A stretch of DNA of 60,920 nucleotides, the filler included, from Basidioascus undulatus (taxonomy: Eukaryota): the NCBI GenBank assembly GCA_000826855.1. It is 7 parts of 7 records of this genome, joined end to end, with 100 filler letters (N's around TTAATTAATTAA, not from the genome) between each part and the next. Parts side by side here need not be neighbours in the genome. Positions count along the whole stretch, not along the records: positions 52,325 to 60,920 come from JTLS01001367.1; 6 more parts are not named here. The stretch is one strand, 5' to 3'. A program made the translations under genes and the position numbers. Positions 1,016 to 60,920 of the stretch are shown in pieces; position 1 is the stretch's first letter, and each line of letters begins with the position of its first letter. The notes under the pieces were generated by a model. It made no database searches and was not told the origin of the DNA. It was given only the letters and a program-made list of their open reading frames with translations.

Positions 1016-2399
1016 GGCGTGGGAGTGGACGGCGAGAGCAGAGGGGTCGGTGAGGAGGACGAGGAAAGGAGAGCAAGAGAGAGCGCGCGGCGACACCGAG
1101 AAGACGTTCAAGTCCGCGGAGCAGCCTGGCTGGCCGGCCCGCCGCGCCCCACGCGCTGCCCATCTGCCCCCAGCCCGTCGGCAGCGCGCTCGATGGCTTA
1201 TCGACATCAATCGACTCTGATCGCGGCCTGTTTTTGTCCCGTTTCTTATGCTTGCAAACAATTTTCGATAGCTCTTTCACCGCACGATACGCCGTCCAAG
1301 TTAGCAGGCAGCATCCTGTATTGATCACGAGTGCTCGAAAAGCAACAGCAAAGTCTTACGAAGGCAGGTTGAAAATACTTCTAAGTACTGACGGCTGGTC
1401 GGCAGCAGGGCGGGGCAGCGAAATTTCGAGGAGTCTGACCGTCGGCCGGCTGCGTCCGCCGCCGTTGGGATGCCACACAAAGACTAGCTAAGGCTGCCTT
1501 CAGCTTCTTTGTTTCTTGACAAGGAACCTTTTCACACAACACACAGCACCGAGCTGGTCGAATGGCAGGCGTGAATACCAACCAGAGCAAGGTTGAAAAC
1601 CCATCTTTCAAGAGTGTGCTGAGATTTGTGACGGAGCTATTGAATTTGCCGGACCAAAGTGTGCAGTATCTCCCTTTCAACGACGTTCCTGGATGTATGA
1701 GTATATATCGAGGTACTGGTCAACCTGTGTAAAACAGTTGACTTAGAAGGGGACAGACTCGCGTAGCAGAGGCAACCGTACAGTCGCTCAGCAGGATGAG
1801 ACGTGCCTGAGGCGTTTTCAACAAGTCTTGCATTAGCTCTCTTAGAGAAGTTGAACAACACATGTAGCAAAATATGCAATTCTATTACATAATATCACAG
1901 CCATAAAGCGACCGACGATATACGACTGGTGGAGAGCGTGTTCGGCAGCAAGCTGGTAAAACTGGGTTTTGACCCCCGTTTACGCCCCACGCAAATTTCC
2001 TACTGCTGCCCCTTCACACCACAAACCTCCAAATTCGTGAAAAGCGCCCTGCACATGAAAAGCTTTTGCCATACCGGTTCACCATTATCAGGCAAGCCGC
2101 CATTAAATAGTAATCACAATCAAGCCACTCTCAGCTTGATGGCGCAGGGGAAGCGCGGTGGGCTCATAACCCACAGGTCTCTGGATCGAAACCAGATCAA
2201 GCTATTTTTTACTTGCTTTTTACTCTCCGGAGACCTCCGTCGAGTCTCCTGCAGAGATGGATGGCGGAGCGCAGCACTCTAGCATTGTGTATCATGCACT
2301 AAGTGAGGGAACCAAGTACACAGATAAGGGGATGAGATATTGGGCCAGGAACTTGGCAGCCGGGACGGAAACAAGTAGTTATTCGGTGAGAGAACTTGA

Positions 2400-8734: not shown

Positions 8735-8735
8735 G

Positions 8736-8808
8736 ATCAGGGGGTTGCAGGTTCGATCCCTGCGTCGGTCAAGGCCGGCTGGCTCAATGGTAGAGTATCT
8801 GACTACGA
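8736..8808 (+). tRNA. Putative circularly permuted tRNA-Arg(ACG), copy A: 3' half (38-73) at 8736-8771, 1-nt linker at 8772, 5' half (1-37) at 8773-8808
   Basis: Swapping the halves gives a complete cloverleaf: acceptor GGCCGGC/GTCGGTC+A73, D arm GCTC-AATGGTA-GAGT, anticodon stem TCTGA/TCAGG with loop CT-ACG-AA (anticodon 8805-8807), T arm GCAGG-TTCGATC-CCTGC. T6 follows immediately and no 3' half is seen downstream. Confidence 0.8.
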
Positions 8809-8809
8809 C

Positions 8810-8815
8810 TTTTTT
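8810..8815 (+). terminator. Pol III terminator (T6) directly after the 5' half of the permuted tRNA
   Basis: A37-C-TTTTTT; the same A-C-T6 ending follows the normal tRNA-Val at 57248-57255. Confidence 0.75.
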
Positions 8816-9749
8816 GCACCTTTTGCCCAACCACATCTTAGCACGGAATGACAACGGTCATTGTTGCGACATTACCGCTGCAGCCTGCTCTTTTCGCAAT
8901 TGCCATCTTTATTTCGCTTCGAGACTGCTAACACGCTGCAGCCTTGCCGACAGCGCCGCCACTGAATCTGTTCGCGCACGGCCGGTAAACATCCCTTTTC
9001 CTGCAGACTATTATCTTTGATTGCGTTCAATCCAAAGAACATCTAGGGCTGAGCACCATCAGGTGGAATGTCCAATTAGGTGTGTGCAGTCGGGCCGACA
9101 TGGGGACGATTCGAGATAGCAAGCGGAACAAATAATGCGTTCCGCTGTGAGTAGTAAGGCATAATGGAAGCTAAACGCTGTCACAAGTGATTCAATGAGA
9201 AATTAAAAATACTTTCGATCGTTTTGAAGGGTACTGGATGGCCGGCGGACGGTTCCAGTCTGGAGGCCCTGACCGACAGTTGCACATCACAGCTTATCTG
9301 CCCATAAAGCTCTGGGGATCATTTGCAGGTTACCTCAACGTGGGTGTACGCTTCACATCTCCTATACATCCTCAATTTGAGGTTTTCGGTAGTGGACGAT
9401 GTTGTTCGCTATGAGTATGTGGATGAGCGGGCGACCTTCACGAGCAAAGATTCACTGCTTCCGGTGACCGCTCCAAGGACCTACGTTGCCCTGCGGGGCA
9501 AGACGGCGGCCGCATGAAGCTACAAGCGTGCCAGTAAGGCCTTTATTACCTTACATGGGTTTTTTTGGTAGTTGGAAGATAGACGATAGATCAAGGATAA
9601 GCGAGCGTGCCTCATCACACGATTTGGCAGCTTTGCCTGAAAGGGGTGACTCTTCTTCAGCCAACTTTTCGTCCGACGATGATTCCCACAATATAAGCGA
9701 CCCCGTTGTGGCCTTTCTCTGATCTTCTTGCGCGGCTATCACCTTCTCG

Positions 9750-10756
9750 TTGGCATGGCGCCCCTTCCATGGACAGCGACAATCCACCTTGCGAACCTGT
9801 CCCTCATCCTCGGTCTCACAACGACTTCCCGCTTTTTCTGGCTATAGGTCTGGATACCCCTCACCCTACTTGTCCTCCTGCACATATATTCCCACGACAC
9901 CTACCCGTCGCGAACCCACTGGGTCGAATCCGTCCAGCGAGTACCGCCTTTGGCGTTGCCGTTCGCGCTGTCAAGCTGCTGCTCTGCAGCGAACTGCAGC
10001 GCGACTTTCGGCTCGACGGCCAGGACAAGCCGCCTTCGGGCTTCTTCGGGATTTTACTCTGGGCCTTCCAGATTTTGCCAACTCAGCAAGGCATTGGCTG
10101 GATCTGGCACGCCAAGAACACGCCTCCCTCACTGACGTCGTCGCGTCCGGTCCGGCCGGTCTTCCTCTTCGGTGAGTGCAGCTGCATCGCTCTTGTTGCA
10201 CTCAGCATTTCCTCGCAGGCCGACTGTCTGTCTATGTGGGGTGTATTCTCCAGCATGCACACGATTTTGGAAAACGTTGGCATCAGTGCCTCCGTCTGTG
10301 AGTGTGTGCCAGTTCTTATCGACTGGGGTAGCCGATGCGCTCTAGACAGCCATTCACGATATTTCCCCGTTACATCCTTGGCTTTTCAGGACTCAAGCCT
10401 CAAACAAGCATATCGGCGGCTTTCCTCCTCTCGGCCATTGTAAGGGCTGTCTTCAAACCACCAACCTTCGGCCTGCTGACATTCTTCGACAGTTCCACGC
10501 CGCCCATTCGTACGCAACGTCGTCCGGCAAGCCGTTCAACGGCACTGTCCTTTTCTTTCTTGCTCATCGTGTTGGATTTTTGCTGGAGGATGTCGTGGAC
10601 ATTTCCCGCCAGCCAGCATGGGTCGGCTACCTTTGGGTCTTTTCCTGGTTCAGCATCATTGGGCCGCTGTGGTTTAGCGACATGGTGAACAGCAGCTTCT
10701 ATGACAAGGTGGAGGGTCTGGTACCCGTCTCCATAGTTTCTAAAATTTTCAATTAG
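9750..10756 (+). pseudogene. Membrane-bound O-acyltransferase (MBOAT_2 / wax-synthase-like), probably frameshifted
   Basis: Motifs QGIGWIWHAK, F-GKRWHQCLR (reached only by a frameshift after MWGVFSSMHTI), AFLLSAI/FHAAH (catalytic His, across an intron starting at 10440) and FFLAHRVGFLLEDVV...GYLWVFSWFSIIGPLW. Stop at 10754-10756. N-terminal hydrophobic segments lie in different frames. Confidence 0.7.
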
Positions 10757-11999
10757 ATGTATTGTATATGGAAAGGATCTCCTCGTGTAAACTGCAGTTC
10801 ACCAGCTACGTGTGAATTTGCAAACACTTCAGTAGCCATATCTACCTTCCATTCACTGATGCAATCAGCGAGAAAATTTCGTCGTTCTTCTTTACAATCT
10901 GCACCAGGAGGCCACCCCTCACCCTCGTTTGGGGAGAGAACAGGTTGTCCGGGTACCTTGAACTCACCTGTAGGGCTCGCAGAAGGTATCTGGGGCCCTT
11001 GAAAAGTTTGTGCGACTGATTGATGACATTCCCAAGGTCCTTGGAGACCCGCTATAAGATGGAACAGCTGTAAGCTGGATGCCTTATGGCGGCCGGATTC
11101 GAGGTTGAGCATCGGCATCAACTACAGGCCCAATTCAGTGTACGGCAACCGGTAATATTCTGATCAGATCCAAACTGATAACACCCATACTTGCGGTGTA
11201 AGCAATGGGTAGATACCACATTAACGCCATTGCCGCTTTGGCAGTCTCTAAAGCCCAGGTCACCGCGCAACCTTTGGCCTTCATTTGGCTCAGAGCGCCT
11301 CAAAAGTTCAACATAAGAGAAGATGCATGGTTTCCAAGCCTATCACAAGTCCTGCACCCCAGACCCCACCGCCCGTGGTGGAACAATACCGTATCGCAAA
11401 TCATAAGCACATGAAGAACATTGACCCGCCGAAAGGATCCTGAAGTAAGATCCCCTTCTGCACGAGCAGTAGAGCCAGCTTCGTATGGCCCAAATCTCCT
11501 CTCGTGCATCGTCTCAAGATCTGCGAAGCTGAACTTCTGTAGCTGAACTCGGAGGCGCCTGCGCGTGAGGGTCTGGGAGAATTGCGTAGCTGCCCGAATG
11601 CTCCGACATGTCGTAATTACTGAACGTGAGCTTGATCTCGCCCAAAGCAGAGTGGACCAGGCCTTTGCGAAATCGAGCAGGGGGCCCGATGTCAGACAGG
11701 CTTGGCGTCTCTAGCTTTGGGCATAGCTGGCCGAGGCCCGGTAGGTAGGTCGATTGTGCGTTCAAGCTCTACTCGAACAGGTTGAGCTGCTTCAGCTCGG
11801 ATCGAATGCTGATCAGTAAGGCCGTTGCCGAGAAGCAGGCGCTGGGTAAATTCGCGCCGTGCAGGACGAAGTTGAGCGAAATCAATGCAGGGATACGCTA
11901 TTGTGAAAGGCAACACGCGAAGCTGCCGGCAGAGGCTCAATTTGCGATCCAGTACAAGCGCTGGAGACGAGGCAAGTTCAAGCTGGGGAGCCGATCTGT

Positions 12000-12760
12000 G
12001 TCCGGATCATTGTTTGACCCGTTGAGGGTCAAGCGAGGCAGCTCCCACATGGCATGGCGATCCCGTTGATGTAAAAGTCGTGGTTTTTGGTGTGGACCAT
12101 TGGGGTGAAGAGCTCGAGCGGCATCTTGTGCGCGGCCTTGTACCCGTGGAGAGCTGAGGAAACAGTGTGCGCGGTATCGGAGGGATAGTATTCGAGCGTA
12201 GACGCGATATGGGATTTGCAAGCTCCTGCACCCAATAGCACTTTGGGTTGGTCTGCCTTCCAAATTGTGTGTTCTCATTCCTCACCTGAGAGAAGAGCTT
12301 CTTGACATCCACCATATAGTAGACGTTCCCGATGATGCCGACTTGTCAAAGGGGAGTTGCCCCCAGCCTGAACTCTGTCTGCAGCCGACGCCGGTATGCG
12401 CGTACCTAAGGACCCCAACACCTATAAGATGTGACCAGAATGCAGATAACTCAGTACGAGGCACACTCACACCTTCTTAATAGACAGCCAGTTCTTGATA
12501 CCCAGCTGCTCGATGACCCACGACAATGTTTTCCGAGCGGACAGCGACAGCCGTGGCTTTGGGAGAGACATAAGGATATCGGCCAGGAGAGACTTTGGTG
12601 TGAAGGTAAGATATAGCGAATAGCAACTCAGTGAAGTGCAAACATACTTCGCAAGAAGGGTATGGGTAGCAGCGGTCGGCAAAGCCAAGTCCTAGCCCAG
12701 ATCGTCTCGATAGTCGTGACGCAGATTGAGAATCACTGCGAATACAGAAATACAATGCGC
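12000..12760 (-). mobile_element. Degenerate fragment of a basidiomycete transposase-like protein family
   Basis: Broken frames give YPYPSCE/SLLADILMSLPKPRLS...WVIEQLGIKNW, then QELANPIS, LEYYPSDT and LFTPMVHTKNHDFYI. These resemble the ELANP/FYPED/TPMV/DFYI motifs of a repetitive family common in rust and agaric genomes. Frameshifts and stops are present; superfamily is uncertain. Confidence 0.45.
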
Positions 12761-13705
12761 AGAAAATCATGCGCATTAATCCATGCAGTTGAAGGTACCA
12801 TACACGAGTCACAACCCGAACCTTCATCCCCACCCTCCGCACCCTCTCAGCCCTCGCTCACCAGGCCGACATGGGTTTGAACATTCCTATCTGCTCGATA
12901 CATTTTCACTTAGTTTTCCTGGGTGAAATGCATGTCGAATGCCGTGGCAGGCACCTGCATGAAGAAGGTGAGCGTCACAAGGACCGAAATCATCTTGCTG
13001 CAACGTCCTTCAACAAGGCCAAACAACATGCCCTGCCTGCCCTTGCGCACCAGGGACGTCGAGTGTTGCTGTCTTTCGAGCGGAAAGGGAATCTGTTTAC
13101 CTGTTTCTGTTTACCTGTTACATTTATACTACCCAGTATTTCCTCTAATTCTATAAACTGAGGGCCGCTACCGCAAGCGAATCCATCGGTCCCATCCACA
13201 CCGTCCGACGGCCTTGCTCTTCGTTGGAGGGATGCAAGGCTAGGCAAGGCGTCGCAAGTCATACATCCTGTGCACTCCTCGTTGGCTTTTAAGAAGTTAA
13301 TTATAATACCTTAGGTTATTCTCCAGCTCGCGTGCCCATGTCAGTGTGTAGAACCGACTTCTGTTCGGACAGCTAATGCCGCGACTTCGAGGCGCGAGTT
13401 CAAACGGAGCAAGCCTGAAGCAGGCAGTGCCTCTACTAATAGATATGGAAATTATGAAGCAGTCTTGTCGTTCCGCTGGGGACAAGACTGCCCAGGTCTG
13501 GAGTCGGAGAGACTCTAGTTTGGCGGCACGAGTGTGTGTGTTTGTGTGTGTGTGTTTGAAAGAGGAACAGTGACGGGTCGGTGTCCGAAAAGGCAAATCG
13601 ACGCGGACTCAAGCTGATCGTCCTCCCTTTCTGCCACCATCATCTCTTCCGTCCTCAGTCATTACCAAATAGGCTCTGACTTGTCATCGGCTATACTATT
13701 CGACC

Positions 13706-14686
13706 ATGGATCTCCGCCTTGCCAACGAGACCCTCCGAAACATCTTCGAAGTGCTCCACGACGACGACCAGGTCGGGGATAACGCGGACCTCAAAGCAGT
13801 CCGCCTTAACGAGGCGGCAATTTATTCCTTGTCGTGTTTCGGGATCGCTGCCGACAGAAATGGGTGTACAGGATGTCAGCACACCTGCCTTTTATCGCAC
13901 AGTCCGTCTACGGACACGCGAATCGATCATTGCTCTGCACGATTGTCTTATCGACCTGAGCATCCGCGGAGAGCCTCCCGGATCTCATATCCGTCGGCTC
14001 ATCTTTCCAGACGCAGACCTTAGCGCCGGTCTCATCGACAGTCATATACACGTTTCAAGCATTCTCGCTCACCCAATTTCGCTTCACGTGGTCCTGCCGC
14101 GCTTTATGCGCTGGTTCAGCACGTTCACTCAACCCTCACATCGTTCACGATCTCCGTCGGCTCGCCCGATGGTCGAGTCTTCGATCTACTGTCGAAACTG
14201 TCCTCTCTCAAATACCTGGATCTCACGCACGAGCAAAGGAGCGAATCCACGACCTTTCCTGCGTCCGCCGCTCCTCCTCTGATTCTTCCGCATCTCGAAG
14301 CATTTCGCTGTCTTGCGACACATACACCCACGCAGGGCTTTCTCGACACGCTCGCGCGGGCGCACTTCCCTTCCGTCCTCCAGGTCGACCTGTGTCTACT
14401 GAAGCTTCGTGACCCCGAGGGTATTCTGTCATTCATGAGAAGGCATGGTGACACGATAGAACAGCTCACGCTGCAACTCTATCCATTAGCGGCCATCAAT
14501 ACGGCCCTATCTGCTGTTCGCCGTTTGGCACTTCATGGGCTTCTTCTGCACGCATTCGCCAACTTGCTCTCCACAGGGCAGCTACCGCGAGTGGACCTGC
14601 ATGCTCCTCGGCACCGGGGGCAGCTCCATGATGGGAGCGAACAGGGGCCCCGCCATAGTCCCCCGCAAGCGGCTATTCGCGACTAA
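13706..14686 (+). pseudogene. F-box/RNI-like hypothetical protein, frameshifted
   Basis: MDLRLANETLRNIFEVL (F-box-like start). TPAFYRTVRLRTRESIIALHDCL...PGSHIRRLIF lies in a second frame and LRR-like fragments in further frames. Confidence 0.45.
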
Positions 14687-17365
14687 GGACCAGGCTCGCG
14701 AGGCCTTCTGCTTCAGCATGCGACTGGTGACCGGGGATAGCCCCGACGCGTACGTCCCATGGGAGCCTTACGAACCCTTCTTTACGATCGTGGCACCCTG
14801 TGCCAAAGCGGCGGGAAACGCTTCAGATCTAATGGGGCATGACAGACGCTCCCTTTCATACCGCGATTATGCTCGCACACCTTCGCGTTTTTGTGCAGGA
14901 TTCAGTGCACACGGTCGTGCGTCTCGAAATCACAAACCGTGCGAGCGAGGAGGACCATTCCGGGTTTCTTCATCCGTCGCATGCAAGCATAGGACGGAGA
15001 GTCGGGACACGCAGGGCTCGCGACGGCCTGGGAGACGCATCTGGAGGATCAGAGCATCAGGTGGGAACAGCTATGCCCTGCATTGGTGTAATTGCAGTGC
15101 ATCCGTATCTCACGTAACGCTGATGCGGCGCTGTCTGCTTTCTCCCTTGATCGACAGCAAGACTACATCCTTCGGCCCTCAACCATGTTTAATTTCCAGC
15201 GGTTTGGTACCTCAAGCGACTTCGAGCGCCTTTCGCAGGACCACCGATAGTACCAGCGCTGCCACACCCGGCGGCCCGGGACGACACGCCAGATCGCGGC
15301 TGTGTGTACCCAACTGCGCAAGTGAAGCTGGGTCCAGCTCGGGATATACAGCGAGGGGAACAGGATGCCGCATTCATTCGTCTGGGGAGAGCTCGAAAAT
15401 GGAGGTCAAGTGAGGATGTGGTGGATGCATCCTCCGGCGGAGATGGAATTGCCCGGGCCTCAATACGGAGACACTGTGAGCGATGATGGGAAGTATGGGG
15501 CGGAGTTTGGTTCGTGGTGGGGTTCATTGAAGTGGGACATCCATTTTTTCGCGTTTGCGGATGCATATCTATATGGGTCATCAGCTGTGCCTGTGCTGAA
15601 AGTAACGGTCCCCAACCAACCCTTTGGCGACCTCGATTCAAAAGGCCCGCACCGCTGATCACCACTCTCGATAAGACCCAATGAAAATAATCCGTGGACA
15701 ATTCTTAGGTGTTCTACACAGGCAGGTTCCTGGTGTGCATTGTGCGGCGAGCCCGTCGATAGTCACGCTGCTGTCGCACGCGTGCCGGGTTGTCCGTTTG
15801 GGCGGTGACCGTATGATTCGGCGGAACTACAGAATCAACAACCACATTAGCAAGAGACCTAATGGAGTGTTCTGAGGTTTCTTTCTTTTTGGTTTCTAAC
15901 GCTTGGTGCAAAACCGAGGTTTGTCGGCGGCGGGGCGAGCGATCCTGAGGCGGAACTTCGTCGCGAAGTCCGAACTCGCCCTTCAGCGCGGGCGTTCCTT
16001 GATGATGGGCGAGGAAAAGCACAAGTTAATGCTTCAGCTTTTCCTCCTTACACCATTCAAATGGAATGCCCCAGATCCAGCTACGTTGTCCACTACGCAG
16101 ATGAGCACCAGGCCCGGCTGGGCAACGTTCGCCTCTCGCTGTCTTGTGATGCCTGAACTATCCCTGACAAGTCCGAGAAACTTTTACGAGACTCTTTGAT
16201 CAACAGGTTACAACGTAGACCGTCCCTCGCACGCAAGGCAGCTTGCTCGTCCTCCACTGCAGTACTGCTAAACTTCATAGTCCCGGCAAGCGGAAATTAA
16301 CAATGAGCCTATGTGGTCTCTCCAGCCGCTCGGCCTAAAGGCAGAGCATGGACTAATTCACCTCGTGCCTGTAATTGATCAAGATCCTTTACCACTGCGC
16401 GGCTTCTTCGCCCGGTAGCGCGACCCCCATTCCTGATGAGCCTCCAGACTATCGAAGCCGATGCGTCCGCAAGGGCCCACAGCGAGCTGCATACCAGAAG
16501 ATGTGCTTGATTTGATTCAGAGGAATGGACAACGTTGAGGGGGATAGTGAGGTGTGAGTCGGTATCGAGTCTCCAGCGCTTGCGTGGGGAAGCAGAAACT
16601 TGCAGGTGGAGCTCTAACCGAACTTGGGGTTTCTCCAGTTTCTGTTTCTGCCCGTCCTCTAGCAGCCCACCATTCACCGTATTGTAGCTGACTGTGAAGT
16701 CCACAGTCTGCGCTCCGCGCCTGCGACACGAGTCCTGCCGGACTCTGAGCTTTCCGATGTGCTCTCGAAAGGGTAAGGAGGCACCTGCTCTCTCTTGTCC
16801 ACTCCACTCGACCAGATCCGACTCTGATTCCAAACTACTGTCCATCTCCGGCATCCCTCTGAGCGTGAGCGGGCTCGCGCTCTTGCATCGGCACTGCTGT
16901 AGTTCGCCCGTCACCCCAACGAGGGCAGGTCGCTCGACCGTCGAATCGAGCAGGATGATGAGAATCGCATGTAATGCGGAGATATCAAAATGCATATGTA
17001 TGGCGTTGATGTAGGCTTGTGGGAGTTGGTATGCGTGTTGGGAGGGGAGGGCGTGTATGGTCGAATGTGTCTATCGATGTGTGCGAGTCTAGAGTCTATG
17101 TGCGATACGAGCGTACGAAGAATAAAATAGTGTTCTATGGTCTATGTCTAAGTGGTATGGTATAAAAGTGTCTAGTCTACGTGCGAGGGTACGCAACTGC
17201 AACGGAACGGAAACGAAACCCAGCATGGAAAGCGACGAAAGTGTCCTCATCCCCCAACCGCTACTGGACGAGCCCCCTCTCCCTCCCCATCCCCTCCCCC
17301 CATCCTCCCCCTCCCCCTCTCCCCCAGCCGCAGTACGCTTCTGGCGGGAGGGGTGGCTCGGCGAA

Positions 17366-52324: not shown

Positions 52325-52388
52325 GATACTCTACCATTGAGCCAGCCGGCCGTGACCGACGCAGGGATCGAACCTGCAACCCCCTGAT
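52325..52388 (-). tRNA. Putative circularly permuted tRNA-Arg(ACG), copy B: 3' half (38-73) at 52388-52353, 1-nt linker at 52352, 5' half (1-28, cut by contig end) at 52351-52325
   Basis: The reverse complement of 52325-52389 is identical to 8735-8799 except the linker base (C vs A). The upstream sequence contains no 5' half. The anticodon is inferred from copy A. Confidence 0.75.
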
Positions 52389-52399
52389 CTCGACTACCA

Positions 52400-52412
52400 C
52401 TAGCTTGCGCCA
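52400..52412 (-). promoter_or_regulatory. A-box-like element (TGGCGCAAGCTAG) in the leader of the permuted tRNA
   Basis: Resembles the Pol III A box (TRGCnnA...G) and starts about 38 nt upstream of the B box GGTTCGATCC (52374-52365), in the normal A-then-B order. Confidence 0.45.
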
Positions 52413-52880
52413 GGTTGTAATCGTTTGTGTTTTATCTTCATCTCGAGAAAGATTTTACCAAAATCATGTCACTGAAGGAAGTCGCAGTGCTGTGTGCTGT
52501 TACCTTTACACAATGCACGGCAACTCACGTTTACGGGTTGGTTGAAAGGTTTGCACCACAGCTAAGATATTCGTACGTTCAAGTTGTTCTTGCAGCGTCG
52601 CAGCTACTTCTTTCGGAGATTTCAACCCACAGCTCCTCCTACCCTGTTGTTTCCCCTCGGTCAACGTCTGTTTTTATCCACCACGGCCCAGGCCTACGTT
52701 TTGGGAACGCAGCAGCCACACCTAGCGCGGCCCATTCCTCGCTCGCTCATCCGGTTCTGCACTCACCTCGCCTCGCCTCGTCTCGCGTCCTTCCCCTTTC
52801 CTTTTTCCCACTAACGTCGTTACTTTCTCCCCTCGCATCTCTCACCACCCGCTTCTCACGTCGACATAGCTACTCCCGGG

Positions 52881-53180
52881 ATGCCTATATGCACTATCGT
52901 TCTGCTTCCTTCCGAGTGCCTCTGTGCACCGTTCCGCCGGGTGCCTCTGCGCACTACGGTTCATTCGTGCCTCTGCGCACGCGTTCCTCTACTTGAAGGG
53001 TGCCTCTGTGCACTCTTATTAGGCTTACATACCATGGTGTGCCTTCGAGCACCATCGTTCGCTCTTTTGTCAGATGTGCAATCGGCACACCACCCTTCAT
53101 CCTTTCTTCTGGTGCCTCTGCGCACAAGCTATCTTTCTTCTTCTTCTTGGTTTCCCCTCTTTTGAAGTGCCTTGTATCAC
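52881..53180. repeat. Interspersed array of a 14-bp motif GTGCCTCTGYGCAC (about 9 copies)
   Basis: Consensus-matching copies at 52916, 52941, 52967, 53000 and 53112; degenerate copies at 52881, 53039, 53076 and 53167. Spacers are unique and 11-41 nt long. Confidence 0.8.
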
Positions 53181-53816
53181 ATCCCTCTTCTCCTTTTCTT
53201 GGATTACTACACCCACAACCGTTCCACCTCTTGCTCTGCCTCCGCGAAAGCTCAGCGAGGGCGGTCTCATGCTGGTGCCACCGTACCCTATCTTGTGTAG
53301 CTCCTTCTGACAGTTTCTCGGGTTTAACTAATTTCCTGTCAAACCTCAAGCCAAAAAGGCCTGTTCACAAACCAGTAAATCTTACATGTTCAGTTCCTCT
53401 CTCGTCGTGTGTATGTTTGCTGACGATGAACCTTATTTTGCGGTTGCGCAAGGCACTCCGGATAGTCTGTAAACCTCAGTCTTCGAGGACGAGTCGGCGG
53501 GATCTCTTCAACATAACGAGAAGCTCAAACATCAATGTACACCAGAATGAAAGCTCCCCCGGGGAGCGGCGTCACTCAGTCCTGCGACGATGACTCGGTC
53601 TCACTTTTGAAGCTGGCGGCCGCTTCCTGTGAGAAGAATAAGTGAGAACTCTCCGTGGTAGCCGATTGTTCCGTTACTGACCTCAAAGGCGCGCCCGTCC
53701 GCCCGCCCTAGACTTGGGCCTGGGGACGACTCGATATCTACATGCGTAGAGAGCTTGATCGCTACCGGATGGTTCGCGTCATAGCGCTTCCTCTGCCCAT
53801 TTCACCGCTGATTAAG

Positions 53817-55520
53817 CTATAGGACATAACCTTGAGTCTGGCTAGGGTAACTCACGTCTCGAAAGACGGAACAGCTTCTGCTCGATGAGCTGCTGTATGT
53901 GCCAGGCTCGCCAAGAAGATGGCGCAGGTCGGACCGGCTGGATGCCGGCGTAAGTCTCAGATGTGGAGAGCAGAAGGAAAGGGGATGAATACCATTGGAG
54001 GTTGTACAGAAGGCAATGCGCATATACGAGAGGCATAGTGATCCAGAAAGCAGCGAAACTGCCAGCTCACAATGTCAATGTGAGCTGTTGAGTTCCTCGT
54101 AGCGTAAACGCTGTGCTCACGAGCTGTTGTGCTCTTTTTCGACCCTACCACGAAAGCCCTACGGGTGAATTCGGTACGCAAAATCACGCGAAATTTGCCG
54201 TACGTAATCAGCACTACAATCACTAGAACCCAGACAGCCATTGCGAACGCGGTCTCCAGCGTCACGCGAAGCAGTTTTTCTGGACAAGGAAGGAATATCA
54301 GCCCGGCCGTACCCAGGCTATGGTGAGTCTGGGATTTACCAATTATGTTGTCCTGAGGGTTTCGAGCAAGGATCAGCATTGGCTTCGTTGCGAGAGTTAG
54401 ACCGATCGAAGCAGCCAGGGAACGGACAGTCTTGGAAAAGCCGGTGCGGCTCTTGACCAAGTGCGTCCCCAAAATGACGAAAATGGCTATGCCAGTCGCT
54501 GTGGCAAGTTCGTACACAATTTCAGTGCTCTTGGGATCCCTGAATGGCTGAACAATTGGGAATATCTCACGCACCCAAGGTCACGCAAAACAGGCCAATC
54601 GTGCCAACACGAAATTCAGCCCGGTCGGTAATCTCTTCCACCGTCTGAAAAATTCAACCCCTCTGTATACTTGTCTAATGTACGAGGCAACGGAAGGACG
54701 CACTTGATTCTTCCAACGCATGCCACTGATACCCACAAAAGCCGAAAGAACGAAGCAAGCTAGAACCGCAAGACCAAGGAAAAGGCCGGCGAATACGTTC
54801 TTCTTGAGGACCTGGATGTAGGTTGATGTGGATCTGTCAACATGAGCTTCGCGAACGGTGTCATGGATGAAGGGCGCACTTTCCAGCAGCGCAAGGCGAA
54901 GACAGACTGCAGACAGCGCGATTGAGCTCTTGATCGGATAGAGAAGTACTTCCCACGAGATACCTGCACAACGAGAACCGGGAAAGAGCTAACGAAGATT
55001 GTGGCTTGACCAATATAGTCCAGTGGCGGTACTGTGTTACGTTCACGTCAGTCGGGGCCTTGGGGATGATACGTTGGCGTATGCATACTTCGCTGGATGA
55101 GCAGCCGCCAGGTGATAGCGAAGACGAAAGACGAATGAATGCTGCTCGGTGGTATTTCAGTCACAAACAAAGTGGGTACGAGACAGGAAAGGAACGCACA
55201 CACAGAATACGAGTAACAGCCATACCACCGCACGGAGAGGCAAGTCGCCAGGAAACTCTTCGCGCCAGGAGGGCCGCCGGTGAGCCTACTCCATTCAATG
55301 AGCTTAGGAGTAGGTGGGCCTGAAAACTCACCCGTAGACAACCGGGCAGTAGAGACGAAAACCCCACCCAGCAGCGCAGCGTTGGCGATGCAGCCCATCA
55401 GCCTGGGTTGAAAACGAAACGAACGTGAGACTGCAACCAAGGCTTTGCGACAGACGATATTGTTACTAACCATGGCGCAACATATGCCTGTTGATAGACT
55501 TGCTCATGAGCGGTAGGCAT
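53817..55520 (-). CDS. Fungal multi-pass membrane protein, DUF6534-like (3' end uncertain)
   Basis: MPTAHEQVYQQAYVAPWL start, GCIANAALLGGVFV, IAIFVILGTHLVKSRTGFSKT, KLLRVTLETAFAMAVWVLV, PLVYAHCLLYNLQ. Many short introns; not all splice junctions were traced. Confidence 0.55.
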
Positions 55521-57166
55521 CGCTGCTGCAGGTGGAATCGCAGGCGACCTCGGACTGAGAGGGAAGAGGTCAAGATTGATCGGCGTCCCGGGGCGCAAGC
55601 GAGGGAATAAAAGGAATCTGCTCAAACTCATCGCGGCTGGCGGAGCTCGTTCGCCGGAAAGCAGCTACCATTCATCTCAGTTGTGGCGTTTTAAGGTTGG
55701 CGGAAGAAGCCCTTCAGAAAGACCACCTACAGAAACACCTGCCATTTGCAGCCTTCAGTATTGCGCGAGAGAAATGGAAGAATTCCGACGACGATCCCGG
55801 CTAGGGCAGTTAGACCGAACGACTGTTGCGCATTCTTAACAGCGGAGGAGCACCCAATTTCCCGGAGAGGGCAATTAGGCCCTGAAAATAACTATGGTAC
55901 ACTGCAGTTCCGCCTGACTGATTATGAAAAGCACGATTATAGTCGAGTCCACGCCTTTTAAGAGTTGCGATCACACTTTTGCAGGCTTTGTTCACAATTC
56001 AGCTGCAGCAGGACAGCCGCTCTGCTCTGGCCAGTCCAACTTACCACTGTGTATTGGCTCTCTCTCCAAAAGTGCTATACTCAGGGGCTAGGCTTGGCTC
56101 AGCCTTCATGTCAGCCAAATTCCACTTGTTAACCGGAACACCCCGGAACGCAGAGTAATAATGACAGCGACGAAGGCGAAAGATGAAAGGACGACCGTGG
56201 TAAGTGAGCCCAATGAACGGCCGGAATTAAGGGAAGAAAGACAGCCGTCTTCCGTGACAAGAGGGCTGGGAGAACCGGCGGGGCGGGGACCGGCGGGTGC
56301 ACTGCAATGCACCGCAGAATCAAGCAGGGAATCACAGGTGACTCGATGTCCATCTTTCAGTTTATTGCTGCAGAAATCATACCGTACTAGAGTGCTATAT
56401 CAAGTGCGCTGTTATCGTTTCTCGGACTGGCACTTGTTACACTAAAGTGAGAGCGGGGAAGAGGGAAAGTCCTGGGTAACGAAAAAGAACAGAAAGGAAG
56501 TTGATTGTCTTGACGATTCCGTTTGTAAAGGACAAAAGCTACCCTCATAGCAGCCTTCATTTAAATGATCATTACATGGAGCATCCTTCACCTTCACCTA
56601 AAGAGACCACCTCTCCAAGCGACGAACCAACTGCACTGCAGATTATCGACGTGCCAGGAGTTGACGGCTTAGAGTAGAACTTCACAACTGCAAAGCGCCC
56701 ACACAGAGATACTTATTCAAGAGAGACATCGGTAAGTCCTCAAAACTGATGCATGTATCCGATCCATATGGGCTAAGAAGGCCAAAAGGTGAAGACAAAG
56801 CGCAGTTGAGAAAACTGCGCCAGCTTGCGGAGTCGGGCCGACCGACTGGTCAGGTAACTACGACGGCTCACTGTTCCCTGAAATAATTATACCAAATGCT
56901 CAATAAACAGAGCATGCTGCGCTACTGCGACACTGAGGTATAAGGTGGAGTAAAAGGCTTGAACACGACCTCGTTCGTGCAGGACCGGCAGGCGCAGGCA
57001 TTGGGGAATAGGGCATCCAGTTTCGACAAAGCTCACCTTGGAATTTGGAACAGGGCTAAACCATCGCAACATCTGGGGTTCTCTTGGCAGCCGATGGATT
57101 CCCTCCTGACTCGATTGTGTCTCAGGCACTTTATTTGTACTGTAGAAATTACAAGTCATAAATGTC

Positions 57167-57248
57167 AGTTGCGTGTTCTAATGGTTATGATTTCTCTTTC
57201 ACAATTTGGAGACAGAGAAGGTTCCCGGTTCGATCCCGGGCGCGACTA
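57167..57248 (+). tRNA. tRNA-Val(CAC) with a 9-nt intron (57204-57212)
   Basis: Acceptor AGTTGCG/CGCGACT+A, D loop AATGGTTA, anticodon stem TCTCT/AGAGA with CAC at 57200-57202, intron ATTTGGAGA at 37/38, T arm CCCGG-TTCGATC-CCGGG, T6 terminator at 57250-57255. Confidence 0.9.
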
Positions 57249-58005
57249 CTTTTTTCCAGAAAACGCATGATCAATGCAGCATTGACATACATAATTCCGT
57301 ACCCTACCCCGTGTTGGGTCCTCAGCCTGTGTTGGCCTGTGGGGTGCTGTTGTCCGTGATTCATTTGCGTCGGTCCCTATGCAGAGGGCAAACAAAAGAG
57401 AGAACGGCACAATGTGTTGCAAGGACAAAAGTTGCTTGAACCGTGAATCGAAAACGGGGCGGGTCGAGATGAAATGGCAACACCCAGGTTACCACTACCC
57501 CACCCAAGCTTGTTGTAGTTCAACCTAAAAATTAATAACTGACGTACTGATGTACACCAATATCCTCGATCCCGCCTTCAGGACGTCTGTGGTCATCGCA
57601 ACGCATGGGCGCCAGAATATTCACCGCACACGGCGATTTATTGTTGGTTTAGAAGTGCCGGATCACCCGCATTGAGTGGGCTTTGTGGTCGGGGCCGCGC
57701 CAGCCTTCTCTGTGGCTTTCAACCACGACGTCTTTTATGTGTACTATGGCTGAAGAATGCGGTTCTTTGGTTCTATTGAAAGATTTTCAAGCGAGGGTTT
57801 GTTTCCAGCAAAGGTTAGCAGCCCGATGTCCAACGAACTAACGCTGCGATGCGTCGCAAGCTCGCGGGTGATTCCATGGACGTTCCGCACACTCAACGCG
57901 TCCAGCTCCTCCTAACTCCTCCAAGCTCCTAGTCCAGCTCCTCGTCTAGGCGCTCTTTTCCAGCTTCCTCCTCTCTCCGCCAGCCTCTCCTCCCTCAGCC
58001 TCAAA

Positions 58006-58852
58006 ATGTCATCCCCTTCCGCCTCGCCATCCTCCCCCGCCGCAGCACCATCCAAAAAGAAGGTGTCGGCGCCGCGCAAGTCGACGTTGGAGCGCGCGCC
58101 CGGCACGTCGCTCCTCCCCGTCGCGCGCGTGCAGCGCATCATCCGCGCCGACAAGGATATGGACAGCTGCGCGAAGGAGTCGGTGTTCTTGGTTTCGGTG
58201 GCGACGGTGCGTACTGATATCGCTGGAGGGAGTGTGGGCTGCGAGGTGGCTGAATGCGCTTGGTTGGGAGAGTAGGAGTTCTTCATTAAGAAGCTGATGG
58301 ATGCGGGCTACGTGGAGGCGAGACTGGATAAGCGGAAGTGGGTGCATCATAAGGACCTCGGTGCGTCTGCTCTTCCCGTATTCAAGCCCGAGCTCTTGCG
58401 TGCTGACCCGGTGAGGTGAATAGCCAACGCCGTCAAGAAGTCCGACGAGTTTCATTTCCTCGAAGGTACCGCTCTCTCCTGTCTCGAGCTTTGGCGTTCG
58501 CTCACAAGTCCTGCACGCCACACCAGAAATCATTCCGCACACCATGCCCCTCTCCACCGCCCTCTCCAAGCGCGCAGCTAAAGCGTCTGGCGCGCCGGAA
58601 GCTGTCGGCGAGGACGAGCCTGCGGGCGGGGGCATCGCGGCGTACATGGAGAGCGGCGCTGCGGCGGGCGGGAAGAAGGGGCGGGCGAGCAAGGGCAAGG
58701 GTCGGGCTAGCAATGGCGGCGGGTCGGCGGCGGTGCGGAAGCGCAGGCCAAGCGCGAAGGCTAAGGAGGCCGCGGGAGATGTTGAGCCGGAGGACGCGAG
58801 CGCTGCAGCAGATGAAGGAGAGGAGGGGGAGGGGGAGGCTATGGATGAGTAG
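58006..58852 (+). CDS. H2A-like histone-fold protein (DNA polymerase epsilon Dpb3/POLE4 / CHRAC-type)
   Basis: Spliced: LLPVARVQRIIRADKDMDSCAKESVFLVSVAT/EFFIKKL...RKWVHHKDL/ANAVKKSDEFHFLE/EIIP, then a low-complexity tail. Confidence 0.8.
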
Positions 58853-59334
58853 CTAGGGACTTATTGAGCGCTAAACGTAGTTCTGTCTGATGTGCGTTTC
58901 TCACATTGGCTCTGGCGTCTCGCAGATGAGCGGTGATTCCCAGGTGGATCTCGCGGCCCGGCGTAACCAACGACGCCTACATCGAACTCGCTTTCGCCTT
59001 CACTGGTGTTGCGATTTCTTTATTCTGAGTCCTCGATCATTTCGTTTCAAGCTGTCGTTTCGATAAGATTTCCAGACCGGCTACGCGCGGCGTTTAAGCG
59101 CTTGGTCGGATGTTCGGCCCGTGACCGATGTTCACCGGGCTTCCCTTCGTCGACCTGCCCTGCACATCGTATGCAGGTTTCTGCATCATGAGTTCACGAG
59201 TTGACAATTCTACCACGTTCGGGCCAAGTTCAGCCCGCTGCTGCCGCGGTTATCAACGGCGGTTGCTGCATGACCTGTGCTTTCCTCGCTCGGCTCGCCC
59301 AACTTGACCCCCATTGCATCTCGTCCACTCATCA

Positions 59335-60920
59335 ATGTCTACTCAAACCTCGAACACCGCCCTCCCAGCCACCTCAGCCCCCCCCCACGCGCCCACGTAC
59401 GAGTGCGGGCTGCTCACGCCTACACCGGACCCGATCAAGTCGATCGAGACTTCCCGCGTCCTCCCGCGCTGGTTGTTCGTCCGGGTCGAGACGGAGTCCG
59501 GCATCGTAGGGTGGGGAGAAGCGACTCTTGAGGGCCACTCAGAGGCGGTCGAAGGCGCTTTCGAGGATTTGCGCGAGCGGTTTGTCGGCGTACGTAGTCC
59601 AGGCTGGCGCTAATTGAGAGATTGGGGAGAGGCTGAGTTCGGAGAGCACTACAGTGGGACTCGGACAACATCGAGGATATCTACCAGTCTGCGTACAGGC
59701 ACCGGTTCTACCGCGGAGGCGAAGTGTTGATGAGCGCCATAAGCGGGCTTGACATCGCACTGTGGTATGTCGGTTCACAGTCTGACCATTCTCTCTAAGC
59801 CAATGCTGACTGCACGCTCGTTCGACACAGGGATATCAAAGGCAAGCGGCTCGGCGTTCCCGTCTGGCAGCTGCTCGGCGGCAAGGTGCGCGATCGAGTG
59901 GCCGTCTACGGCTGGATCGGAGGAGATAAGCCGTCGGATGTATTGGAGGTAAGTCAACGGGAACGGAGAATCCGCAGATCCGCATCCGGCTGGGGCAGAG
60001 CGCTCACGAGCATAGTAGGCTGCGAAGGCCCGCAAGGCGCAGGGGTTTACGGCTGTGAAGATGAACGCCGTGGAATCGGTCAGCGATAATCTTGCCGTCT
60101 ACACTGACTGTAGCTGTGAGGCTGATATCTTTCCGGTTGCGCGCGGTGTTGTTACAGCTCGCTTGGCTCGACTCGCCGCACGCGCTGGACGCCACTGTGA
60201 AGCGCATTGAGGAGGTCAAGTCGGTCGGTCTGGACGTGGGACTGTAGGTGCCATTCTTCTTTTCGAGGGTCCGTACAAGGTCGTTGAAAGTCCTGCCTTC
60301 ACAGTGACTTTCACGGGCGTGTTCACAAGCCGCTTGCAAAGCAGGTCAGTCGGCCTGAGACTGTCGATCTCGCTGCTAGTAGCCACGCTGGTTTAGGTGA
60401 CTGAGGTCTACTGCACCAGCTTGCCCGACTGCTCGAACCCCACCGACCTCTGTTCATTGAAGAGCCGCTCCTGCCCGGGCACGTCGAGGAGCTCAAGAAG
60501 CTCTACCAGCAGACGACGATCCCGATCGCTGTGCGCCTACCAGTCTGACCTATACCTGGCTGTGTACGCTGAAAGGCATGTCTCGGGCATTGTGGCAGCT
60601 TGGCGAACGGTTGTTTAGCCGGCAAGACGTGCGCCCGTACTTTGAGGCGGGGTGCATCGACATCATCCAGTGCGTATCAACCCTGGCAGTGCTTAATCAT
60701 CGCCGGCAGCACTGACAGTCTGGACCCGCTTCATAGACCGGATATCGCTCACGCAGGCGGAATATCGGAGACGCGGCGGATTGCCAACATGGCTGAGTGC
60801 GTGTAGCATCTGTCCTTTTGTGTCATTGCGGGTCGCGCGAGCTGCGTCGCTTCGTTGGTTGACTGTGAGCACTTTCCAGGACATACGACATCGGCGTAGC
60901 CCCGCACTGGTGCGCACGGG
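59335..60920 (+). CDS. D-galactonate dehydratase (DgoD-like, mandelate racemase/enolase superfamily; 3'-truncated)
   Basis: Ten exons splice in frame: [89 protein letters not shown]. Confidence 0.92.

Follow-up and report, generated by a model that had tools for sequence, protein, structure and literature searches.

The window, the whole stretch of 60,920 nt that was analysed, consists of seven contigs of 8596–8634 bases each, separated by runs of N around a TTAATTAATTAA spacer. It is not one stretch of a genome: the contigs are near-equal in size, descending from 8634 to 8596 bases, and their GC content varies from 0.54 to 0.61. Contig 7 (positions 52,325–60,920) is JTLS01001367.1 of the Basidioascus undulatus assembly GCA_000826855.1. 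A short element composed of two tRNA halves in swapped order occurs twice, once on contig 2 and once on contig 7, and two tRNA genes of ordinary layout lie on contigs 1 and 7 (Table 1).

Table 1. Coordinates of the permuted tRNA element, its flanking signals and the ordinary tRNA genes in the window; numbering in brackets or after 'positions' is that of the tRNA.
Feature	Position	Strand	Remark
Ordinary tRNA-Met(CAT) gene	2133-2204	+	Contig 1
Copy 1, last leader base G-1	8735	+	Start of contig 2
Copy 1, tRNA 3′ half, positions 38-73	8736-8771	+	Rfam tRNA model positions 36-71
Copy 1, linker A, between discriminator A73 and G1	8772	+	
Copy 1, tRNA 5′ half, positions 1-37	8773-8808	+	Rfam tRNA model positions 1-37
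Copy 1, anticodon ACG	8805-8807	+	
Copy 1, trailer, C then T6 (T6 at 8810-8815)	8809-8815	+	Candidate RNA polymerase III terminator
Copy 2, tRNA 5′ half, positions 1-28	52325-52351	-	Ended by contig edge
Copy 2, linker, C in element orientation	52352	-	
Copy 2, tRNA 3′ half, positions 38-73	52353-52388	-	Same as copy 1
Copy 2, leader (-1 to -25)	52389-52413	-	
ATAAAA, TATA-like word	52430-52435	-	Motif search; possible upstream promoter element
tRNA-Val(CAC)-like gene with 9-base intron	57167-57249	+	Contig 7

Alignment of 8735–8799 on the + strand with the reverse complement of 52325–52389 shows the two copies to be equal at 64 of 65 positions. The sole mismatch, position 38 of the 65, is the single base between the tRNA halves, which is A at 8772 and, on the + strand, G at 52352, corresponding to C in the orientation of the element. 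The sequence-only reading had described 65 bp in common that differ just at the linker base, and the alignment of both strands bears this out; its junction words are likewise present in the window sequence. Its observation that both contigs terminate inside the element also holds, with contig 2 beginning at 8735 and contig 7 at 52325. Copy 1 contains the entire 5′ half to tRNA position 37, followed by C and T6, and copy 2, in which the contig end cuts the 5′ half at tRNA position 28, is the only copy with a leader. A blastn-short search detected no third copy of the 82-base unit in the window, and all other matches were of 13 bases or fewer, so the 65-base match is not due to chance.

Neither ARAGORN nor Rfam at gathering thresholds, applied to the window, made a call at the element. 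Taken alone, 8735–8771 matched positions 36–71 of the Rfam tRNA model as a 5′-truncated hit (16.9 bits), and 8773–8809 matched positions 1–37 as a 3′-truncated hit (16.5 bits). Once the halves were rejoined in normal order, ARAGORN returned tRNA-Arg(acg), and the rejoined cloverleaf has a free energy of -23.9 kcal/mol compared with -25.9 kcal/mol for the minimum free energy (MFE) fold. All four stems of the rejoined tRNA are paired, with 7 of 7 pairs in the acceptor stem (two of them G-U) and 5 of 5 in the anticodon stem. The 3′ half of copy 1 comprises the 3′ strand of the anticodon stem, the variable loop, the T arm with GGTTCGATCC, the 3′ strand of the acceptor stem and the discriminator A; its 5′ half comprises the 5′ strand of the acceptor stem, U8, the D arm with GG, the 5′ strand of the anticodon stem, the anticodon loop and A37. 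Direct reading located U8, A14, G18G19, U33, a purine at 37, G53, TTC and A58, with the invariants intact in both copies. Judged on sequence, the halves are complementary parts of one tRNA in swapped order. In both copies the 3′ half precedes the 5′ half on one strand, with a one-base linker between them, which is the arrangement of a type II permuted gene, and rejoining gives the cloverleaf and sense anticodon that belong to such a gene.

The break in the element falls at 37/38, the canonical site of tRNA introns, and the C and T6 that directly follow position 37 match the ends of both normal tRNA genes in the window. The element carries, besides its one-base linker, a T6 run downstream of the 5′ half, and on the upstream side the ATAAAA word, present as a motif only, sits 42–47 bases ahead of position 38 in copy 2. 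In the leader, GTAGTC at -9 to -4 (52392–52397) is complementary to G30–C35 in 6 of 6 pairs. This helix, shifted in register by 3, is attained by 0.057% of random 12-mers, and the MFE fold of the predicted precursor, which pairs the leader with A26 to +2, makes use of it. In the canonical register, one bulge consists of A-2, G-1 and A38 and the other of G36, A37 and C+1; both three-base bulges are correctly placed for cuts at 37/38, and the outer helix is weak. Between them, C32:G-3, A34:U-5 and C35:G-6 pair around a U33/C-4 mismatch, giving 3 of 4 helix pairs, which 6.7% of random 12-mers from contig 7 equal, and in which leader and trailer come from different copies. A local alignment of the leader with the reverse complement of A26 to the T run is weak, its score being reached by 209 of 2000 shuffles. 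The stretch from -25 to -6 of copy 2 weakly resembles tRNA positions 7–22 (score 18, reached by 123 of 2000 shuffles), and the region downstream of copy 1 has no likeness to the 3′ half (1682 of 2000 shuffles reach the score). This anatomy fits a leader and a trailer (C and U's), drawn from different copies, that would stand in for the 3′ portion and a very short 5′ portion of a tRNA intron, respectively.

The ordinary tRNA genes show how such signals are arranged elsewhere in the window. Upstream of tRNA-Met(CAT), a TTAAATAG word is found at about 25–30 bases, and T6 stands directly behind the discriminator. The gene on contig 7 was called tRNA-Leu(cag) by ARAGORN, but it has no long variable arm and reads better as tRNA-Val(CAC); Rfam at the gathering threshold made no call for it. 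Its nine-base intron, ATTTGGAGA, is inserted at 37/38 and forms a three-base bulge with the 3′ cut and 4 of 4 pairs between positions 32–35 and intron positions -3 to -6, and its discriminator is followed by C and T6. Two normal tRNA genes and two permuted units within 60 kb hint at a tRNA-rich genome.

The number of copies and the reality of the junction were assessed in X1 and X2, two public runs that contain contig 2 fully, by comparing their separately assembled contigs with 8735–8934. X1 and X2 may be the source data of the window, which makes them independent of the assembler and not of the library. Single-copy depth, measured over about 8826–8934, is 19.8 in X1 and 44.4 in X2. The first ~80 bases are matched by 44 contigs in X1, 31 of them at least 99% alike, and by 49 contigs in X2, 33 of them at least 99% alike. 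An exact 56-base contig (8742–8797), which spans the 3′ half, the linker and the 5′ half, has a depth of 175.4 in X1 and 472.7 in X2 (8.9 and 10.6 times single copy), and a sister contig from 8742 with one other letter reaches 298.3 and 650 (15.1 and 14.6 times). At least 9 contigs in X1 and at least 10 in X2 exit into other flanks at 8813–8822, after 4–6 or more T's, and among the contigs listed the flanks diverge only after the T run, with 6 of those listed in X1 and 8 in X2 continuing upstream of 8735. Depth drops to the single-copy level from about 8819, just past the T run of copy 1. Over the 5′ half the summed depth rises to about 250 times single copy, a figure in which overlapping contigs are counted repeatedly and which is not a copy number. 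A normal-order joint, 5′ half then 3′ half, was found in none of the listed contigs of X1 or X2, which show presence only, and the 60-kb window holds no normal-order Arg(ACG) gene.

The sister contig is inferred to carry the C linker, because 8742, where both short contigs begin, lies 30 bases ahead of 8772, the distance expected for the arms of a bubble at k = 31, which we take to be the word size of the assembly. With both variants at ~9–15 times single-copy depth and at least 9–10 flanks, sequencing error and a chimeric junction are unlikely, and there is no need to invoke two alleles of a single locus. The depth and flank check that had been proposed for the junction, made here on separately assembled contigs, thus finds it present and multi-copy; the sequence-only reading was right to suspect a multi-copy unit that breaks assemblies, and its bi-allelic alternative can be dispensed with. 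From these contigs we estimate that there are about 20–25 loci, dispersed and near-identical. The two copies in the window probably come from separate loci, which differ in having A or C as the linker, and most simply the window contigs represent the left flank of a C-type locus and the right flank of an A-type locus. As a scattered repeat some 100 bases long, the unit breaks assemblies. That the halves are held by purifying selection while the linker varies freely is plausible on thin evidence, and a young repeat family would look alike.

Diverged copies also occur in both runs. A long contig (4220 bases in X1, 18542 bases in X2) holds a copy in which 6 of 81 letters are other and the full layout of 8735–8815 is kept. 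Another contig, seen in X1 and X2 and covering 8741–8797, has 4 other letters and is alike only from the variable loop (8741); the sequence ahead of it is unrelated, could form a small hairpin of its own and replaces the anticodon-stem strand. This copy may have decayed, or its junction may be a different one.

The host of the element looks like a basidiomycete fungus, a placement that comes from a gene on contig 3, not from contigs 2 and 7. The longest open reading frame (ORF) in the window, 23591–25756 on contig 3, carries a TM7S3/TM198 domain, and its closest Atlas clusters are basidiomycete; 7 of 7 matches at E <= 1e-10 are basidiomycete, the top ones being from three Wallemia species at 44–49% identity. 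Contigs 2 and 7 are taken to be fungal because they share the assembly and have eukaryote-type tRNA genes nearby. None of the 20 stop-to-stop ORFs of contigs 2 and 7 matched a Pfam family, and their translations appear non-coding, with the long ORFs resembling chance frames. The regions beside the element (8816–17365 and 52414–60920) are gene-poor or have small exons. CGT, CGC and CGA together account for 21 of the 50 arginine codons in the single confident gene, so the organism needs tRNA-Arg(ACG).

Permuted tRNA genes are rare, and their origin and purpose are unsettled. A 2014 review (PMC3978253), which knows them from a few unicellular algae and one archaeon, tabulates 34 of them: 11 in Cyanidioschyzon, 19 in Ostreococcus and Micromonas, 2 in the Bigelowiella nucleomorph and 2 in Thermofilum pendens. 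Across these the linkers range from 1 to 74 bases, the shortest eukaryotic ones being 5 and 7 bases, and the genes of green algae are as a rule of type II (37/38) (PMC3978253). According to the same source, the 37/38 junction suits the eukaryotic endonuclease, and permuted genes have an upstream TATA-like word and a downstream T stretch, their A and B boxes being misordered for TFIIIC. It describes a circular intermediate in maturation, leaves the removal of the archaeal one-base linker unexplained and prefers, as the origin, an intron-bearing gene that was duplicated in tandem and then lost its outer halves (PMC3978253). A 2026 review (PMC13578239) describes eukaryotic permuted tRNA genes as confined to certain unicellular algae.

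The closest counterparts of the element are the type II genes of Ostreococcus, Micromonas and the Bigelowiella natans nucleomorph (Maruyama et al. 2010, as covered in PMC3978253), which have the same half order, the 37/38 junction, a T stretch, a TATA-like or AT-rich word and no CCA. They belong to algae and not to a fungus; Arg(TCT) and Arg(CCT) are among those tabulated in PMC3978253 and Arg(ACG) is not, their linkers are 5–64 bases long compared with one base, and the tabulated algal genes are single, save for two Gly(CCC) in C. merolae, compared with about 20–25 copies here. The permuted genes of C. merolae (Soma 2007, as covered in PMC3978253) have the same layout, and the path from circle through RNase P and tRNase Z to CCA addition was shown there experimentally; the C. 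merolae junctions fall at four positions, with linkers of 7–74 bases, in an organism apparently without the box-binding subunits of TFIIIC (PMC3978253). As far as these sources go, the sole other described permuted tRNA with a one-base linker is the tRNA-Tyr(GTA) of Thermofilum pendens (Chan, Cozen and Lowe 2011, PMC3218864), which differs in having an encoded CCA and with it a longer acceptor loop, a junction at 59/60 and an intron, and in being single-copy. We found no report of a fungal permuted tRNA gene in the literature, going by titles and abstracts. A search for the exact junction pattern with a linker of 0–20 bases returned no matches in metagenome_contigs and genome_contigs, collections with few fungi. 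A looser pattern gave one match in metagenome_contigs (L001) and none in genome_contigs; L001 was rejected as a chance match in GC-rich bacterial coding sequence with no tRNA.

In SINEs, the tRNA part is in normal order and is followed by an unrelated body and a tail, with target-site duplications. Fungal tRNA-related SINEs, such as AfuSINE2 of Aspergillus fumigatus (PMC5063351), are like the element in being short, dispersed, multi-copy and tRNA-derived, with polymerase III signals; the element differs from SINEs in being permuted, in consisting of tRNA sequence only and in ending in a terminator. In structure the element fits a type II permuted gene as far as its layout and predicted fold define one, and it differs from the described eukaryotic cases in its host (a fungus), its isoacceptor, its linker length and its copy number.

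With a probability of roughly 0.55, we interpret the elements as permuted tRNA-Arg(ACG) genes of type II that are functional, have a one-base linker and form a dispersed family in a basidiomycete, for which expression is predicted. From the half order, cloverleaf, terminator, leader complementarity and copy number described above, we infer that each would function as a circularly permuted nuclear tRNA-Arg(ACG) gene with its break at 37/38. By analogy with algae, RNA polymerase III would start some 15–25 bases upstream of the 3′ half, possibly via the TATA-like word, and the transcript would run through the leader, the 3′ half, one linker base and the 5′ half, to stop in T6, one base past position 37. 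The acceptor, D, T and anticodon stems would then form across both halves, and the leader would pair with the anticodon loop, as a tRNA intron would. The tRNA splicing endonuclease would cut after A37 and before A38, and tRNA ligase would join the ends, producing a 73-base circle or, if RNase P goes first, a trans-joined tRNA. RNase P would open the acceptor 5′ of G1, the linker base would be trimmed or, if C, could remain as C74, and the CCA enzyme would complete the end. With a linker of one base, only two bases would be available to close the acceptor stem in the circle. Splicing before end-trimming would be awkward if the fungus is like budding yeast, because there the endonuclease is on mitochondria and the ligase is cytosolic (PMC3978253).

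A bolder version of this reading, which we regard as doubtful, would have all tRNA-Arg(ACG) genes of the basidiomycete (20–25 loci) permuted with a one-base linker, so that decoding of CGU, CGC and CGA would need cutting and rejoining before end-trimming; the C linker would be kept as C74, and an upstream remnant of a 5′ half would serve as both an A-box-like promoter element and an intron-like partner of the anticodon loop. On that version, no earlier permuted tRNA would be known from fungi or from opisthokonts at large, nor any that had multiplied into a gene family.

The copy number itself could also be that of a tRNA-derived SINE-like or retro-copied repeat, or of decaying half-gene pseudogenes, without tRNA function, whose ancestor would have been a circular tRNA or two tRNA-Arg genes in tandem, and whose recent spread would explain why the copies are still alike; we consider this possible but rather unlikely. 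Such a repeat would account for some 20–25 or more short copies that are nearly identical, end sharply and sit between unrelated flanks, and for the existence of variant copies, one alike only from 8741 and others with 4–6 other letters; the summed depth is greater over the 5′ half than over the 3′ half, and some copies may therefore be partial. Fungal tRNA-related SINEs with target-site duplications are known (PMC5063351), PMC3978253 includes reverse transcription of a permuted or circular pre-tRNA as a possible origin, and a C linker could be a leftover C74. The make-up of the unit argues the other way: it holds tRNA sequence, a short leader and a terminator only, with no unrelated body and no A-rich or simple-repeat tail, and instead of the normal-order head, body and tail of a tRNA-derived SINE it is permuted, ends in C and T6 and gives way to single-copy DNA within a few bases. 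A T6 end would not be fully regenerated by retro-copying of a polymerase III transcript, the tRNA invariants are all intact in both copies, and a break exactly at 37/38 together with a leader complementary to the anticodon loop is unlike a random break.

It is improbable, in our estimate, that the junction is a mere boundary between tRNA-Arg-like units lying one base apart in a tandem array, with the contigs as array edges. This would agree with a 93-base contig of X3 (depth 32.7, on 8735–8793), which amounts to 1.5 tandem units of 63 bases, and with the leader of copy 2, which ends in the ...GGTAG-T(C)GAG motif of X3 and itself has a weak likeness to positions 7–22 (123 of 2000 shuffles). The 5′ half of copy 1, however, continues into C, T6 and single-copy DNA and not into an intron or a 3′ half, and ahead of the leader of copy 2 there is nothing resembling a T arm; both window copies border on unique DNA. 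In X1 and X2, depth over positions 23–37 and the T run is at least as great as that over the junction, and the tandem joint is absent from the lists of both runs; given this depth profile and the missing joint, arrays are not the main form. As an account of origins, the array merges with the tandem duplication from which PMC3978253 derives permuted genes. Least probable by far is a single real locus, with the 65 bases as a contig overlap and with A and C as alleles or one of them as a sequencing error, or else a chimeric junction. Copy 2 does have a leader that copy 1 lacks, and copy 1 a trailer that copy 2 lacks, as such an overlap would give, but both variants stand at ~9–15 times single-copy depth in two runs and dozens of contigs have different flanks.

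A confirmed fungal case would mean that the layout can arise and persist with an ordinary eukaryotic splicing endonuclease, and that amplification can carry it to many loci in the case of a major tRNA. The one-base linker offers a test of how RNase P and tRNase Z open a closed acceptor stem, and possible remnants of tandem duplication may still be visible in the element. Standard tRNA finders miss such genes, so that a genome can seem to be without an essential tRNA and its assembly breaks at every copy.

The order within the X3 unit is positions 1–22, TTGA, G-1/A38 to A73, the linker and then positions 1–22 again, so that the 63-base unit is tRNA-like, without an anticodon arm. One flank of the family occurs in X3 as well as in X1 and X2; of contig 2, X3 has next to nothing, and it may be RNA or another library type from the same organism. 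The array-like X3 unit and the leader motif together are a hint of an origin by tandem duplication.
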